Virus record (IMG/VR): IMGVR_UViG_2563366860_000007
Span: 1-40,364 of that record
DNA: 40,364 nucleotides
Direction: 5' to 3' (one strand)
From: a virus
Taxonomy: Duplodnaviria > Heunggongvirae > Uroviricota > Caudoviricetes
Shown: positions 3,734-25,350 of the stretch, piece by piece
How positions within the stretch are numbered: position 1 is the first letter of the stretch
Layout of the letters: each line of letters opens with the position of its first letter
The notes under the pieces: generated by a model
The model's database searches: none
What the model was told of the DNA's origin: nothing
Seen by the model: the letters and a program-made list of their open reading frames with translations, nothing else
Position numbers and translations under genes: made by a program

Positions 3734-6700
3734 TCAGCTAATCGTGATGCCTGCAGTGGCTTTCTTCATCACAACAACCAGCAAATCGCTGATACTTGCT
3801 GTGGGATACCAGCCATTTACCCACCATGCTGATACAGAAAACTCCAGCGTCATGTCGCCGCGACCAGCAGGCATATTAATAACACCACTGTAAACCAGCG
3901 TATTATCCAGCGCGGTACGGTTATAAATTTCAGCACCGTTTTTCTTCACTATCAGGCGGCATGACGAATAAGTATCGCTGTTCTCCTGCTCATGTCTGGC
4001 ACCGCTGAAAGCCACCGCCGGAATAACAATCTGCCGGTTAAACGGCTGATCGTCATAAACCCTGACGGTAATGGTTCCTGATGGCCAACGCTTCGGTGCA
4101 CGGGAGTCACGAGGGAAAGCCTTACCCACTGTTTTAACGAGATCGCCTTCAATCTGGTTTGCAGACAGTTTCCCTCTGATGACACAGTTCTCGTTAATGG
4201 TGACATTATTGAGCGTGCCGGTATTCGCCGTGATGGCTCCACTGATATCCGCATTGCGGGCTGTCAGCCTGCCATCCGGCGTCAGGGAAAACGTCGGAGG
4301 ATTGCCGGATGACGTGATGCTCACCGCAAACAGTCGCTTCAGGAACACGTCGTTCATGAACAGCTGATTCCCCTGCGCCACAAATAACGGCGTGGTGTTA
4401 CCGTTCTCCGGAGTAATCATCGCAATGCGATCGGCCTGCAGCAGAATGTTACTCAGCGTCTGACCATCGACATCCTCGATCCCCGCGCCAATCCCGGCCA
4501 CATAGGGAATACCGTTTTTTGTTTTCTGCACCTTCAGCATATACATGGCATTCAGCTCATTGCGCGTGTCTGACTGAACCCGCTGGATTTGCTGTATGGT
4601 CACGGCCTGGTCACCCAGCTTTTTATCCGTGGTCGAGGCAATTTCACTCCCTTTTTCATCCACGTACTGACGGACCTGTGCTATCTGCCGGGCGTTTTCT
4701 GACTGGCCCTGGCTGACTGTCTGCTTGATTTCACTTTGCTTTTTGTCCACGTACTGGCGGACCTGTGCTATCTGTCGGGTATTTTCCTCACTGCTCTGAC
4801 TGACCGTCTGTGAGATTTCACTGCTGACACGGTCCACTTTCTGACTCACCTGCGCGATGGCCAGCGTCTGATCCTCATTCTTTTTCGCAACCAGCTGCGT
4901 GAGGCTGTTTTCCGCCTCCCCGATTTTCCGGGTCACTTCCGCAATATCCGTGTCCATCCGCTGGCGGATGTCTTCTTCCAGTTGTCCGATATTCTCTTCC
5001 AGTTGAGTGACATCCGATCGCAGGGCTGACGCATCAATGCGCTTTTTCAGTGCCTGCCCCAGCAGCGTCTCATCTATCAGACCACGGAAAAATTCCAGAT
5101 ACCCTTTTGCATCATTGCTGGCCTGCCCGCTGGCTTCCACAAATGCAGACTTGCCCACCAGGTTGACACTGCGCACATAAAACCAGAAATCCATCCCCGG
5201 CTTAATCCGATCGCCCTGGACAGTCCACTGACTGCCGGTCCCCAGATAACGGGCAGATTTTTCCACCTGTGCCGTGTTCGTGATGCGTTTTTCTGAGAAC
5301 CAGAATTCAAACTGTACCGTCGGGTCATACACCGCAAGACGCGGGACCGCCGTTATCTGAAAATACCCCGGCGTCAGCTCAATCCGCGATGGCGCTGCCG
5401 GTGCGGCAATCCGGAACGATACCGACGCCGGATCGCCCTGCTGTCCCCACGCATTTACCGCCCGGACTGTCAGCCTGTAGTTCCCCAGAGCCAGTTGTGT
5501 GAAGCGGTATGTGGTTTCCGTCGTCCTGGCCGTGCTGACCAGCCGCTCACTGCCATCGTCCGCTGCCACGGTCAGGCGAAGCAGGAAGCTCACGCCCTTC
5601 ACCACCTTCGGCGTGTCCCAGCGCGCCAGCACCTGATATTCCCCGCTGTCTGCAGTGACTTCGGCGGTCAGATGCTGCACTGCTGGCGGCGTGACACCAT
5701 TCACCGTGCCGCTCTGGTCACCGTCAAAGTGCGCCCCGTTATCCACGATGGCTTCTTTTTCCGGTACATGCTGCACGGCGGTGATGGCATACGTGCCGTC
5801 ATCGTTCTCACGGATACTCACGCAGCGGAACAGGCGCTGGCGCAGCGTCGGCAGCTTCAGCCCCCACACGCTGTATCCGGCAACGCCGTCAGGAACACGG
5901 CTCACTTTTACCTTCACGCCGTCGGTGACGGACTGGACCTCCACGCTGACCGGATTACCACTTCCGTCAACCAGGCTTATCAGCGTGGTACCGGAGGATG
6001 GCAGCGTGATTTCACGGTCGAGCGTCAGTGTCCGCGTCTGGCTGTTCACCGCCAGCACGCGCCCGCCGGTGCTGATACCCGCATAGTCATCATCACAGAT
6101 TTCAATAACATCGCCCGGTACATGGCGAAGCCCTTCTGCGCCCACGCTGAAGTCCACGGTCTGCGTTTCCAGCAGCTCCGTTTTAATCAGCCACAGCCCG
6201 GCGCGGTGTGCCTGCCCCCGGCTGGTACAGCCAAAGGCATCCATCTTCGTGACATTACGACCGTAACGGGCAATGGCCCGCGTGTCCTCCACAAGCTCTG
6301 TCGCCGTCTCCCAGCCGTTATCCGGATCAATCCAGTTCACCTCAACGGCATTATGACGGTCCTTCAGGGCGCTGAAGCTGTAGCGGAACGGCGCGCCATC
6401 ATCCGGCATCACCACATTACTGCGGTTGTAGGTCCACACCTTATCTGACGGTCGGTCCTGCACGAACGTCAGCGTCTGCCCGTTCCATACCGGCATACAG
6501 CGCATCGCCGAGCAGAAATCACTGAGCACATCCCACGCCTTACGCTGTGTGGTCAGGTACGCATTACAGGTGATGCGCGGCTCCGTACCGCCAAAACCGT
6601 CCGGCACCGACTGGTCGCAATACTGGCCGATGACATACAGCGCCCATTTATCCACATCCGCCGCACCAAGACGTTTCCCCATGCCGTAGCGCGGGTGGGT

Positions 6701-22178: not shown

Positions 22179-22646
22179 CTACTTAATGCACTGAGTGCGG
22201 ATATACTCCTGTGCCCCTTCCAGTTGCATCTGCATCGTCATCAGCCGCTCTCTGAGGGTGAAATAATCCCGTTCAGCGGTGTCTGCCAGTCGGGGGCTGG
22301 TTGCATTATCCACGCCGGAGGTGCCGGTGGCTTCACGCACGGTACCGGGGCAGGTGGCGTTGATCCGCAGGCGCTTACGACCAGCGGCAACGTCAGCGCG
22401 AAGAGTTTCATTTTCAGCTCTCGCATCGGCTAATTCCCTCGAGTATTTTGCATCGAGCGCAGCAACATCACGCTGACGCTGCTGCATGTCAGCGATGGTG
22501 GCGGTCAGCTGCTTCAGCTCACTGACTTTTTTATCACGCTGTTCTTTGTAGGTGATGGCGTTATCACGGTAATGATTAACCGCCCACGACAGGCAGACGA
22601 TGATGCAGATAACCAGAGCATAAATAATCGCGGCGACTCTGCTCAC
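22179..22646 (-). CDS. Rz: Spanin inner-membrane subunit Rz (i-spanin)
   Basis: Close match to recalled lambda Rz (...[29 protein letters not shown]...[15 protein letters not shown]...); probable GTG start at 22644-22646 overlapping the lysozyme stop. Confidence 0.85.
22241..22426 (-). CDS. Rz1: Spanin outer-membrane lipoprotein Rz1 (o-spanin), embedded in Rz in another frame
   Basis: [23 protein letters not shown]... with lipobox LVVSAC and Pro-rich body, similar to lambda Rz1; wholly inside Rz. Confidence 0.8.
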
Positions 22647-23176
22647 TGCTCTATCCCCCAACAGGCTAATGCGCTTTCCTGGTCACGACGAATAACTTGC
22701 CCATAGCAGTTATTTGAACGTATGCGGCAATCGCGCCCACCATCCTTAATCCACCAGCGAATCGCTTCGCATGCCCCCTTACGATCACCGGCATTCAGCC
22801 GCTTATAAAACGTCGACGGGAAACACTTACCGGGGCCAATGTTGTACGGACAGAATGACGCGATCCCCGCTTTCTGGGGTTCGGTCAGCGGCACTCTGAT
22901 GTTTTTCTCCACCCACGCCAGCGCTTTATCACGCTCAATGGCGTTAACCTGGTCGCATTTTTCCTTCGACAACTTCATGCCCGGAACGACAGGTTTGCCA
23001 TCCACCATGATGGCACCACGGCAGATGGTCCAGATACCTGCACCATCACGGTATGCCGTGGTGTGGTTGCCTTCCTTTTCATCCAGAAACTGGTCGAGAA
23101 TGTCAGGCGCAGGCGCACCTGCGGCAATCAGCGCCAGAACGGCAGCCGACAGGCCGTATCTGATTTTTGCGTTCAT
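22643..23176 (-). CDS. Phage lysozyme (T4-type, GH24) with probable SAR signal-anchor-release N-terminus
   Basis: Catalytic E...D...T spacing in [16 protein letters not shown]; weakly hydrophobic Gly/Ala-rich N-terminus [17 protein letters not shown] typical of SAR endolysins. Confidence 0.85.
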
Positions 23177-23226
23177 GGATATTTATCAGGATTTATCGGT
23201 TCCGAATACCTGGATATGTTAAGTCT

Positions 23227-23571
23227 TCAGCCCAGCGGTGGAGTCTTCAGAGAACCAGTAATTCTTCCCGGTAGCTTTCCTTTGTAGGTTATCCACACAT
23301 TCTGCGCCTCTAAAATTACGGGGCGCTTTTCCGGCGACTGCTCACCCCCTTCACATAACCCGGCAGCAACATCCAGGAAGACCTGTCTGATGCTCCTTCT
23401 GGCTGCTTCCTCATAAAACTCCAGCGCGGCACCTTCAACACGGTCCAGCGAGATGTCCAGGTCAAAAATTTCACCGTCAAAGCGTTTTTTGTCCCGTAAC
23501 GCTAAAGTTACCGTAACTTTATTCTCAAAATTGCGGATCCCTTTCACAATCAGTTCATAGTTTTGAGTCAT
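23227..23571 (-). CDS. Hypothetical protein between holin and lysozyme (DUF1327 / YdfR-like by position)
   Basis: 114 aa ORF; position matches the small conserved gene between holin and endolysin in Qin-type lysis cassettes; assignment is positional. Confidence 0.45.
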   Translation of the reverse strand: MTQNYELIVKGIRNFENKVTVTLALRDKKRFDGEIFDLDISLDRVEGAALEFYEEAARRSIRQVFLDVAAGLCEGGEQSPEKRPVILEAQNVWITYKGKLPGRITGSLKTPPLG

Positions 23572-23575
23572 TGAA

Positions 23576-23791
23576 TTACTCTCCCCGTGCAGCCTTACGA
23601 CGGTCCTCTCTGATTTTGAAATACAGGTTAGTCAGATATGTCAGGAAGCCCAGAACCAGACTCCCCAGTACACCAATCGCAGCCCACTGTGACGGACTGA
23701 CCTGATCAAGCCACTGTAAAAACCAGTAGCCAGCACTGCCTGCGGAGGTGCCGTAGGCAATGCCCGTTGAAATTTTATCCATGGATTTCAT
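23576..23791 (-). CDS. Class II holin, phage 21 S-like pinholin with dual-start motif
   Basis: 71 aa from the ATG at 23789-23791: [71 protein letters not shown], matching recalled S21; two Met codons (MKSM) and two TM helices. Confidence 0.85.
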
Positions 23792-23924
23792 AGCCTCACC
23801 TCCGCAGCGAACGGATGGCGTAGTTATAAGGGGAGCGAAAAAGAAAGAATGCGCGATTGCGCAATATGGTAACGTCAGGGTATTATCCACTGGCTGAATA
23901 GATCACTTCACGTTTTTTGTTCCT

Positions 23925-23990
23925 TGCCGCCCGTATCCATATGCGGGCTTTTTTTTGCATGTAAAAAGGCCCCAACACATGTGCGTGGGG
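23925..23990. terminator. Pair of hairpins upstream of the holin (possible bidirectional terminators)
   Basis: GCCCGTAT-CC-ATATGCGGGC followed by T8 (plus-strand terminator) and AAAAA-GGCCCC-N13-GGGGCC (minus-strand terminator). Confidence 0.4.
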
Positions 23991-24192
23991 CCTGAGAGTA
24001 TACATGGTTTCAGTCAACTGCATGGTGCCGGGTGCCTCCCGGTGAATTCAGTACCAGCACCTGAATCCGCGATTATCCCATATACCTACTCGCTGATTGC
24101 CCATCCGCACAGGGGGATTCACCATGCCAGTTTCTTTTAACAAACTCCCCGCAAAACAGACAACTGTCAACCGTCTGAATTGTGAGACATTT

Positions 24193-24218
24193 AAAAAAAA
24201 GGCCCGCAAAAGCGAGCC
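24193..24218 (-). terminator. Rho-independent terminator just downstream of the tRNA cluster
   Basis: Plus strand AAAAAAAA then GGCCCGCAAAAGCGAGCC; on the minus strand a 7-bp stem (with one G-U pair) and UUUU loop followed by U8. Confidence 0.5.
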
Positions 24219-24232
24219 GGGAAAAATAAGTC

Positions 24233-24309
24233 TGGCGCGTTGTACTGGATTCGAACCAGTGACCGATTGCTTAGAAGGCAATTGCTCTGTCCGGTTGAGC
24301 TAACAACGC
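24233..24309 (-). tRNA. tRNA-Arg (anticodon UCU)
   Basis: Hand-folded cloverleaf: acceptor GCGTTGT/ACAACGC perfect, anticodon arm ATTGC-CTTCTAA-GCAAT, T-loop GGTTCGAATCC, encoded CCA; third gene of an Ile-Arg-Arg cluster like ileZ-argN-argO of Stx phages. Confidence 0.8.
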
Positions 24310-24322
24310 AGGGTACAGATAA

Positions 24323-24399
24323 TGGACCGCCTTCGGGGACTCGAACCCCGCGCAACCAGCTTCGAAGGCTGGTGCTCTATCCTGATGAGCTAATGGCGG
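24323..24399 (-). tRNA. tRNA-Arg (anticodon UCG by hand folding)
   Basis: Acceptor CCGCCAT/AAGGCGG with one A-A mismatch at 6:67, anticodon arm CCAGC-CTTCGAA-GCTGG, T-arm CGGGG-TTCGAGT-CCCCG, encoded CCA. Confidence 0.7.
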
Positions 24400-24406
24400 T
24401 ATGTGA

Positions 24407-24482
24407 TGGTGGCCCTTGCTGGATTTGAACCAGCGACCTGGCGATTATGAGTCGCTCGCTCTCACCACTGAGCTAAAGGGCC
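24407..24482 (-). tRNA. tRNA with CAU anticodon, Ile2 (ileX/ileZ-like) backbone
   Basis: Acceptor GGCCCTT/AAGGGCC, anticodon loop CTCATAA, T-loop GGTTCAAATCC; backbone resembles recalled E. coli ileX (lysidine-modified CAU reading AUA) rather than elongator or initiator Met tRNA. Confidence 0.75.
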
Positions 24483-24522
24483 GGGAGCCGCATAATAACG
24501 ACGCGTAATTAATTCTTCAATA

Positions 24523-24801
24523 TCATCCGTTCTGGCTGACTAAATCCTGTACTTCCCGAACCGCCTGCTCAAAACGTTCAGTCTCCAGCTCAACGCCAAT
24601 TGCACGACGCCCGAGCGCCAGTGCCGCTTTCACTGTCGAACCCGACCCCATGAAAAAATCTGCAATCAGGTCACCCGGACGACTGCTAGCGCTGATTATC
24701 TGCTGCAGCATTTCTGCCGGTTTTTCGCACGGATGTTTCCCGGGATAGAACTGCACCGGTTTATGCGTCCAGACATCGGTATACGGCACCTGCGCCGTCA
24801 C
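24523..24801 (-). pseudogene. C-terminal remnant of a beta-class N6/N4 DNA methyltransferase
   Basis: 92-codon ORF with motif I DFFMGSGST and a HPCEKP region typical of the C-terminus of DPPY-first methylases, but no DPPY motif and only a GTG start; an in-frame stop lies about 33 codons upstream. Confidence 0.65.
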
Positions 24802-24859
24802 GCCAAAATACCGCCGCAGTCGGCATTCACAACCACCAGCGCATTTAACGTTCAGCCAT

Positions 24860-24884
24860 AAAAAAACCCGCTCGCGGCGGGTTT
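24860..24884 (-). terminator. tR'-like rho-independent terminator shortly downstream of Q
   Basis: Plus strand AAAAAAA then CCCGCTCGCGGCGGG; perfect GC-rich hairpin followed by U7 on the minus strand, about 70-90 nt downstream of the Q stop. Confidence 0.6.
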
Positions 24885-24886
24885 AA

Positions 24887-24952
24887 GCTGTGTGGCGAAG
24901 TAACCACTCTTAACATACTGACATACTTTTTGCGGACCGCACTAATCATTTT
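24887..24952 (-). promoter_or_regulatory. Predicted late promoter pR' / qut region
   Basis: Short AT-rich interval between the Q stop and the tR' hairpin; assignment by position (Q acts at a promoter just downstream of its own gene); individual promoter elements not resolved. Confidence 0.4.
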
Positions 24953-25333
24953 TTACTTTTTTAGCAGCCAGTCGTCCATCTCCAGTCTTACCCCCAGCAC
25001 AGACAAACATCCGTCAATAAACCCTTCGGCTATCTGCATCTCAATTCGTATTGCTTTTTCGCTTTTCTTTCTCGTCCTGGCTATCTGTCTTTTTGATATT
25101 CGCAACAAATAATGAGCAATGAGAAGCGAATACTCCTCAGGTTTTTTCTGCTTCAGACGAGCAAGACAGTTTTCAATGATAAGTCCGTCATCATCGCAGC
25201 AGGCCGGACGTGGTTTAGTGGCAGATGGTAAAAGTCCTTTGAATCCGGCAGCGATCGGAGAATAGTCCACCCCGGTGTTACCACTTGCAGCCCATGCCCC
25301 CCAGCGTTCAAGAACCATCTGAATATCACGCAT
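24953..25333 (-). CDS. Late antiterminator Q (QuuD-like family)
   Basis: ATG at 25331-25333 (MRDIQMVLERWGAWAA...AAGFKGL...RPACCDDD...) matches recalled DLP12 QuuD; the longer track start at 25348 is GTG. Confidence 0.8.
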   Translation of the reverse strand: MRDIQMVLERWGAWAASGNTGVDYSPIAAGFKGLLPSATKPRPACCDDDGLIIENCLARLKQKKPEEYSLLIAHYLLRISKRQIARTRKKSEKAIRIEMQIAEGFIDGCLSVLGVRLEMDDWLLKK

Positions 25334-25350
25334 CAACTTTCTCCACAAAA

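Follow-up and report, generated by a model that had tools for sequence, protein, structure and literature searches.

A phage-borne tRNA-Arg(UCG) of the argN family with a polymorphic A6·A67 acceptor pair

The window analyzed here, a 40,364-nucleotide stretch of DNA from a tailed virus (Caudoviricetes; IMG/VR record IMGVR_UViG_2563366860_000007), carries three tRNA genes, the middle of which is, by homology and gene order, argN, the central member of the ileZ–argN–argO cluster known from lambdoid phages (Table 1). The gene belongs to an already known family and encodes an ordinary phage-carried tRNA-Arg. Judged from its sequence and predicted fold, this copy is intact and most likely works, if perhaps a little less well than a fully paired one. 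The A6·A67 mismatch in its acceptor stem, which an earlier note on this DNA had spotted in a hand fold, is no error but a polymorphism that runs through the population; its distribution among relatives indicates a common derived change (U67→A) among prophage copies.

Identity and fold of the middle tRNA

ARAGORN placed an Arg(tcg) tRNA on the minus strand, spanning precisely 24323..24399, in the middle of three tRNAs, and the Rfam tRNA model matched it with 54.6 bits over 24399→24326 (gathering score 29). Read 24399→24323, the 77-nt minus-strand sequence is CCGCCAUUAGCUCAUCAGGAUAGAGCACCAGCCUUCGAAGCUGGUUGCGCGGGGUUCGAGUCCCCGAAGGCGGUCCA. Both programs thus bear out the hand fold of the earlier note, which had given Arg(UCG) with the loop CTTCGAA and left the strand unstated: the anticodon loop reads C32 U33 U34 C35 G36 A37 A38, with the anticodon at 24365–24363. 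The acceptor stem pairs as C1:G72, C2:G71, G3:C70, C4:G69, C5:G68, A6·A67 and U7:A66. Here, too, the hand fold stood, as Rfam flagged a single non-canonical pair in the gene, located in the acceptor stem ('v' at A6), so that A6·A67 is the sole mismatch of this copy. The possibility raised in the note that the mismatch was its own folding error is excluded by the agreement of ARAGORN and Rfam with the hand fold. A register-shifted acceptor pairing was likewise rejected, because the register is set by the five G:C pairs, and moving the 3' partners out of it cut pairing from 97% to below 55%.

The copy keeps all four arms, an anticodon loop of 7 nt, a T-loop reading UUCGAGU and its CCA end. RNAfold returned a cloverleaf with four arms and an acceptor helix of 5 bp; in the nearest-neighbor model, the pairs 6:67 and 7:66 are both predicted to be open. 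The bases A20, C35 and G36, which we take to be the identity elements for arginyl-tRNA synthetase (ArgRS), are all retained. The discriminator is U73, unlike the A or G typical of E. coli tRNA-Arg, and the alignment shows this base to be common to almost the whole argN family. In an alignment with no conditioning on the argN sequence, G18, G19, A20, U33, U34, C35, A37 and A38 were invariant, and G36 differed in the Arg(UCU) paralogue only.

A known cluster in the late region of a lambdoid phage

The window tRNAs follow the order CAU, UCG, UCU on the minus strand, separated by spacers of 7 and 13 nt (ARAGORN), and the same three-tRNA layout recurs in the Stx2 phage Min27, in PhiR49_2 and in E. 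coli prophages. Alignment to reference Stx-phage argN, which the earlier note had named as a check, placed the gene clearly: the 301-nt cluster is 92.7% identical to Min27 ileZ, argN and argO, and the middle gene matches annotated Min27 argN (NC_010237) at 71 of 77 positions (92%), with a near-equal Rfam score. Shared with the Stx-phage gene are the gene order, the spacing and the site downstream of Q, as well as the anticodon loop, the D-arm bar two D-loop positions, C1:G72, U73 and the encoded CCA. In contrast, the window has A67 (A·A) and C63 where Stx-phage argN has U67 (A:U) and U63; the four further differences from Min27 (positions 17, 20a, 26 and 44) lie outside the helices. Literature searches for the three gene names of the cluster returned no paper, so the naming of argN rests here on the Min27 annotation; the gene was presumably first named in phage 933W.

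On the minus strand, the genes run in the order DUF968, Q, methylase fragment, the three tRNAs, STnc100, holin, DUF1327, lysozyme, Rz, HNH and terminases (Pfam/Rfam), the HNH gene being followed by the small and then the large terminase. Because the Q antiterminator gene lies upstream, we place the tRNAs in the late operon. In Min27, the cluster sits between Q and stx2AB, and in Stx phages such as this one stx occupies the site where the window phage has its lysis cassette. Pfam found no stx genes in the window phage; unlike in Stx phages, its tRNAs are followed by STnc100 and then by the lysis cassette, and its closest relatives, PhiR49_2 and mEp460 among them, are lambdoid siphophages of the non-Stx kind. 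A promoter of the cluster's own is kept as a possibility only, because promoter-like matches around the tRNAs were not more numerous than expected from shuffled sequence.

Table 1. Features of the tRNA cluster and its surroundings in the window
Feature	Coordinates	Strand	Evidence and remarks
tRNA-Arg(UCG), argN homologue	24323..24399	-	ARAGORN, Rfam, homology to Min27 argN, SCU-125 annotation; 77 nt including encoded CCA
Anticodon UCG (positions 34–36) in loop CUUCGAA	24363..24365	-	ARAGORN, Rfam
A6, 5' member of the mismatched acceptor pair	24394	-	Rfam 'v' flag
A67, derived base producing A·A (U in Stx-phage argN and paralogues)	24332	-	Alignment, allele tables, PhiR49_2 comparison
C63, partner of G51 (24348); U in nearest relatives, giving a G·U wobble	24336	-	Alignment, allele tables
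ileZ-like tRNA, CAU anticodon, first in cluster	24407..24482	-	ARAGORN, Met(cat); PGAP, tRNA-Ile
argO-like tRNA-Arg(UCU), third in cluster	24233..24309	-	ARAGORN, Rfam
Q antiterminator, upstream of the tRNAs	24953..25348	-	Pfam Phage_antitermQ, E = 1.6e-52
C-terminal fragment of an N6/N4 DNA methylase, between Q and the tRNAs	24523..24801	-	Pfam profile positions 137–220 of 221
STnc100 sRNA, between third tRNA and holin gene	23957..24156	-	Rfam, 133 bits
Lysis cassette (P21-type holin, DUF1327, lysozyme, Rz), downstream of the tRNAs	22179..23890	-	Pfam
Sigma-70-like promoter match upstream of the ileZ-like tRNA	24492..24520	-	TTGAAG-17-TATTAT, 9/12 consensus match only
Terminator-like hairpin and T-run, 15 nt past the argO-like tRNA	24201..24218	-	Sequence scan
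Terminator-like hairpin after Q, tR'-like position	24864..24884	-	Sequence scan

Several neighbors of argN have features of their own. The ileZ-like tRNA, which ARAGORN names Met(cat), is annotated by PGAP as tRNA-Ile of the lysidine type on identical copies; Rfam flags the uppermost pair of its anticodon stem, A27·C43, as a mismatch, yet its nucleotide diversity (π) over 110 viral loci is 0.005. The argO-like tRNA has A at position 15 (24295, minus strand), where the commonest allele has G (61 of 110 copies); this D-loop site leaves pairing unaffected. The methylase gene at 24523-24801 is a truncated remnant of the C-terminal third only, and some relatives have a full-length methylase there. 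STnc100 is a known prophage sRNA, lately tied to the PasD family; other E. coli prophages likewise have it 3' of the tRNAs, and Min27 has it 3' of stx2AB.

The A6·A67 mismatch among relatives

In the alignment, Min27 argN, PhiR49_2 and several E. coli prophages have U at position 67, giving an A6:U67 pair, and the window, SCU-125, 14EC047 and one O157:H7 copy have A. To count the alleles, 120 argN copies on viral contigs were sampled by their 5' half as the sole pattern, with the 3' half free to vary; the invariance of the 5' half in this sample is therefore uninformative. The 6:67 pair was A:U in 79 of these and A·A in 40; the one copy left, an indel allele, had A·G. A67 was confined to a C63 background (40 of 40) and was accompanied by A52·C62 in 38 of the 40 copies, most of which also had G58. 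The mismatch is never compensated at position 6, since a scan of viral contigs found no copy with a base other than A there. The Lys(UUU) and Arg(UCU) paralogues built on the same scaffold have A6:U67, so U67 is ancestral and A67 derived.

In a survey of 5,426 complete E. coli genomes, about 2,177 had one or more argN-like copies; per genome, these numbered 2 in the median and 8 at most. The two main A67 alleles had exact matches in 559 and 232 complete genome records, including O157:H7 and the type strain, and were annotated as tRNA-Arg throughout among the matches listed; the commonest U67 allele matched exactly in 146 records. Thus, of the earlier note's suggestion of a real but unusual phage tRNA, the first half is supported, given the homology to the Min27 cluster, and the second is not, given the frequency of A67. 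With respect to toxin genes, the stx-linked copies sampled had U67 in nine of nine cases; among the 28 A67 copies whose contigs reached far enough downstream, none was stx-linked.

The exact window allele, in turn, is rare, with one occurrence among the 5,426 genomes (E. coli SCU-125) and none among the 120 viral contigs. This rarity could point to a sequencing or assembly error in the window, a reading that we rejected and consider hardly credible: SCU-125 is an independent complete genome whose identical 77-mer has other prophage surroundings, viral contigs include the same 3' half joined to another 5' background, and A67 itself is present in hundreds of genomes.

Constraint on the argN family and its slot

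Across relatives, argN appears to be under weak constraint and to be the least constrained of the three tRNAs. Over the same 110 viral loci in which ileZ is nearly uniform, π was 0.092 for the argN 3' half (unconditioned), 0.079 for argO and 0.17–0.4 for spacers and flanks, which puts argN diversity at about 18 times that of ileZ. These viral copies comprised 31 argN alleles, as compared to a top ileZ allele that alone accounted for 96 copies. On 33 distinct argN alleles, standard pairs made up 97.3% of the pair cells; among the seven variable stem pairs, three stay paired and four break, and no double compensatory change was found on these alleles.

A second sample of 120 viral loci was anchored on ileZ, leaving argN unconstrained. 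The middle slot held a callable Arg(tcg) in 63 of the 120 loci, Lys(ttt) on the same scaffold in 19, and Arg(ccg) and Arg(tct) in one each. At 30 loci nothing was callable with argO intact downstream, and at the remaining 6 no tRNA was called in the 330 nt downstream. Because a quarter of these clusters (30/120) have an uncallable remnant, argN is evidently the dispensable, volatile member of the cluster. For prophage annotation and phage tRNA work, this volatility within an otherwise conserved cluster is of modest use: copies in Stx phages stay paired at 6:67, and in roughly one cluster out of four a dead remnant stands in for argN. The findings on argN leave current understanding unchanged.

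The sequences found in the slot vary in kind. In the commonest uncallable ones, both acceptor strands are kept, the anticodon arm is replaced and the T-loop is damaged; the uncallable loci lie among L177-L242, and one of them, L179 (about 6112-6211), has no Rfam tRNA match in the argN slot and an intact argO on its 3' side. The tRNA-Lys(UUU) occurs at L177 (381-454) and 18 other loci, with E. coli matches H88-H95; it is about 80% identical to argN, has U73 and, in most copies, a loop CCUUUAA with C33, and at most such loci it is followed on the 3' side by Thr(UGU) and then Gly(UCC). Together, the Lys(UUU), Arg(CCG) and Arg(UCU) forms look like anticodon remodeling on one scaffold. Other argN copies show changes at T54/T55, a 1-nt deletion in the T-arm or chimeras of an argN 5' half and an argO 3' half, and 8 of the 120 copies in the 5'-half sample end in UCA rather than CCA.

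One could read the slot as a tRNA-remodeling hotspot and not as a site of plain decay, with the consequence that widespread mismatched alleles of the A6·A67 type would be functionally tuned and kept by selection, for example for EF-Tu affinity or nuclease evasion. A single acceptor/D/T scaffold does occur with UCG, UCU and CCG (Arg) and with UUU (Lys), alongside chimeras and remnants; even so, we hold this reading to be quite improbable.

The looseness of the family also bears on whether the window copy itself is decaying and effectively non-functional, as the earlier note had considered. On this account, U67→A would be a neutral or slightly harmful change in a redundant gene, persisting by prophage hitch-hiking. 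The high diversity of argN relative to ileZ, the pair-breaking variants that are common and never compensated, the copies with UCA ends, T-loop changes or a 1-nt deletion, the uncallable remnants and the several copies per argN-bearing genome all speak for it, as does the 5-bp acceptor helix predicted for the window copy.

Intactness of the window copy

In score, structure and identity elements, the marks expected of a pseudogene are absent. The covariance-model score of the window argN is not well below those of functional relatives: at 54.6 bits it equals the Min27 reference argN (54.8 bits) and comes close to the alleles of E28 (56.2 bits), G6/7 (56.0 bits) and 2014C-3051 (58.2 bits), whereas the A67/A52 haplogroup scores about 43 bits and the disrupted remnant at L179 gives no match. 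The neighboring tRNAs of the cluster score 70–72 bits, but since the reference and U67 alleles of argN score like the window copy, the lower score is a trait of the whole family and not an effect of the mismatch. Likewise, we found no broken arms, no indels and no loss of the anticodon loop or CCA, and the synthetase identity elements A20, C35 and G36 are kept.

Folding energies agree with the scores. The cloverleaf of the window argN was computed at −27.0 kcal/mol; among fully paired alleles the commonest, which has G51·U63, lies no more than 1.3 kcal/mol lower (−28.3 kcal/mol), while the best alleles reached −31.3 and the A67/A52 haplogroup only −20.0 kcal/mol. Reverting A67 to U in silico shifted the minimum free energy from −30.7 to −32.6, with all four arms retained.

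Annotation points the same way: ARAGORN gave the anticodon as UCG, and RefSeq/PGAP annotates the identical SCU-125 copy as tRNA-Arg with no pseudogene flag. Moreover, a mismatch alone is no proof of decay, because the ileZ-like tRNA has A27·C43 and is nearly invariant. The notion of a decaying gene thus applies to the family, which is relaxed and often pseudogenized elsewhere; for the window copy, which has one mismatch, all four arms and a reference-like score, we consider it unlikely.

Origin of the window allele

Compared with PhiR49_2 over 23900–24900, the window shows just five differences, two of which, 4 nt apart, are tRNA positions 63 (C versus U) and 67 (A versus U). The common A67 haplogroup, of which the type strain ATCC 11775 and E. 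coli O157:H7 are example carriers, shares A6·A67 and C63 with the window and is identical to it from position 59 through the 3' end into the spacer, so that both sites match. Unlike the window, this haplogroup carries A52·C62 and G58, along with the less stable fold and lower score given above. The window allele therefore looks like a rare recombinant, composed of a PhiR49_2/E28-type 5' part and a 3' patch of the A67 haplogroup. The simplest reading would be a recombination or conversion patch of at most ~27 nt; two point mutations are the alternative.

The coincidence of the two sites could also suggest that A67 and C63 are kept together by selection, a loose acceptor combined with a tight T-stem tuning EF-Tu binding or processing, giving protection from nucleases or serving an extra-translational role. 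A67 alleles are very widespread, A67 always comes with C63 in the viral sample, and positions 63 and 67 are the two argN differences from PhiR49_2, out of only five in 1 kb. However, the linkage is explained by the 4-nt spacing together with a short recombination or gene-conversion patch from the A67 haplogroup, and clonal sampling, such as that of O157, makes identical alleles look more numerous than they are. In addition, most A67 alleles add A52·C62 and G58, at scores of about 43 bits, which resembles degradation rather than tuning. We accordingly regard maintenance by selection as very improbable.

Codon use and proposed function

Applying the same ORF-picking method to the window and to 50 kb of E. 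coli core chromosome, we compared codon use per 1000 codons. CGA stood at 5.96 in the window versus 4.02 in the host core (ratio 1.5, p = 0.027), a modest enrichment; CGG at 11.2 versus 5.2 (ratio 2.2); AGA at 7.2 versus 1.4 (ratio 5.3); AGG at 5.4 versus 1.2 (ratio 4.7); and AUA at 8.4 versus 4.3 (ratio 1.95). The over-used codons, CGA/CGG, AGA/AGG and AUA, are exactly those that the three tRNAs would read. The analysis settles which codons the phage tRNA set would cover, and all of them are over-used relative to the host.

According to a published proposal, the tRNA genes that lambdoid phages carry after Q supplement rare codons (PMC3636060). For argN, we infer late transcription, host processing, charging by ArgRS and decoding of CGA/CGG. 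The cluster would be transcribed within the Q-dependent late transcript, possibly also from its own promoter, and host enzymes would excise the three tRNAs, in which CCA is already encoded. The host ArgRS would charge argN via A20, C35 and G36, and U34 would then read CGA by Watson-Crick pairing and CGG by wobble, in a host that reads CGA through inosine wobble only. The argO-like and ileZ-like tRNAs would cover AGA/AGG and AUA, whose over-use is greater still. A6·A67 lies beside a strengthened G51:C63 pair, and the molecule is predicted to keep its cloverleaf, with a shortened acceptor helix.

Host and cellular tRNA-Arg

E. coli is not known to have a tRNA-Arg with the anticodon UCG; it reads CGA via inosine wobble. 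Its tRNA-Arg isoacceptors are ICG, CCG, UCU and CCU, broadly in line with PMC3711424. According to that paper, tRNA-Arg(ICG) serves CGA in most bacteria, and CGN codons ending in A or G become easier to read once a tRNA-Arg(UCG) is added. Compared with the host tRNA-Arg, argN serves the same amino acid and likewise has A20 and C35, but differs in its C1:G72 acceptor stem and U73 discriminator.

Cellular tRNA-Arg(UCG), of which the Mollicutes are an example group (PMC3711424), shares the anticodon with argN and should decode CGA/CGG, or the complete CGN box where U34 carries no modification. A cross-species scan for the anticodon arm, used as a baseline for 6:67 pairing only, returned mostly unrelated cellular tRNA-Arg(UCG) from distant phyla such as Acidobacteriota, which have the same anticodon arm; E. 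albertii was the only named enteric, joined by two near-identical copies on contigs of metagenome-assembled genomes (MAGs). Apart from three prophage-like copies, the best cellular match to the window argN was identical at 64 of 77 positions. With mis-registered tRNAs that have no CCA end left out of the baseline (entries with 4–6 'mismatches'), nearly all cellular tRNAs that parse have a canonical 6:67 pair. The cellular genes are chromosomal and essential, whereas argN is phage-borne and dispensable.

A copy at L170 989-1065 is identical to the window argN at 74 of 77 positions and likewise has A6·A67. Its contig is binned as an uncultured Collinsella sp. MAG and is probably a mis-binned E. 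coli prophage contig.
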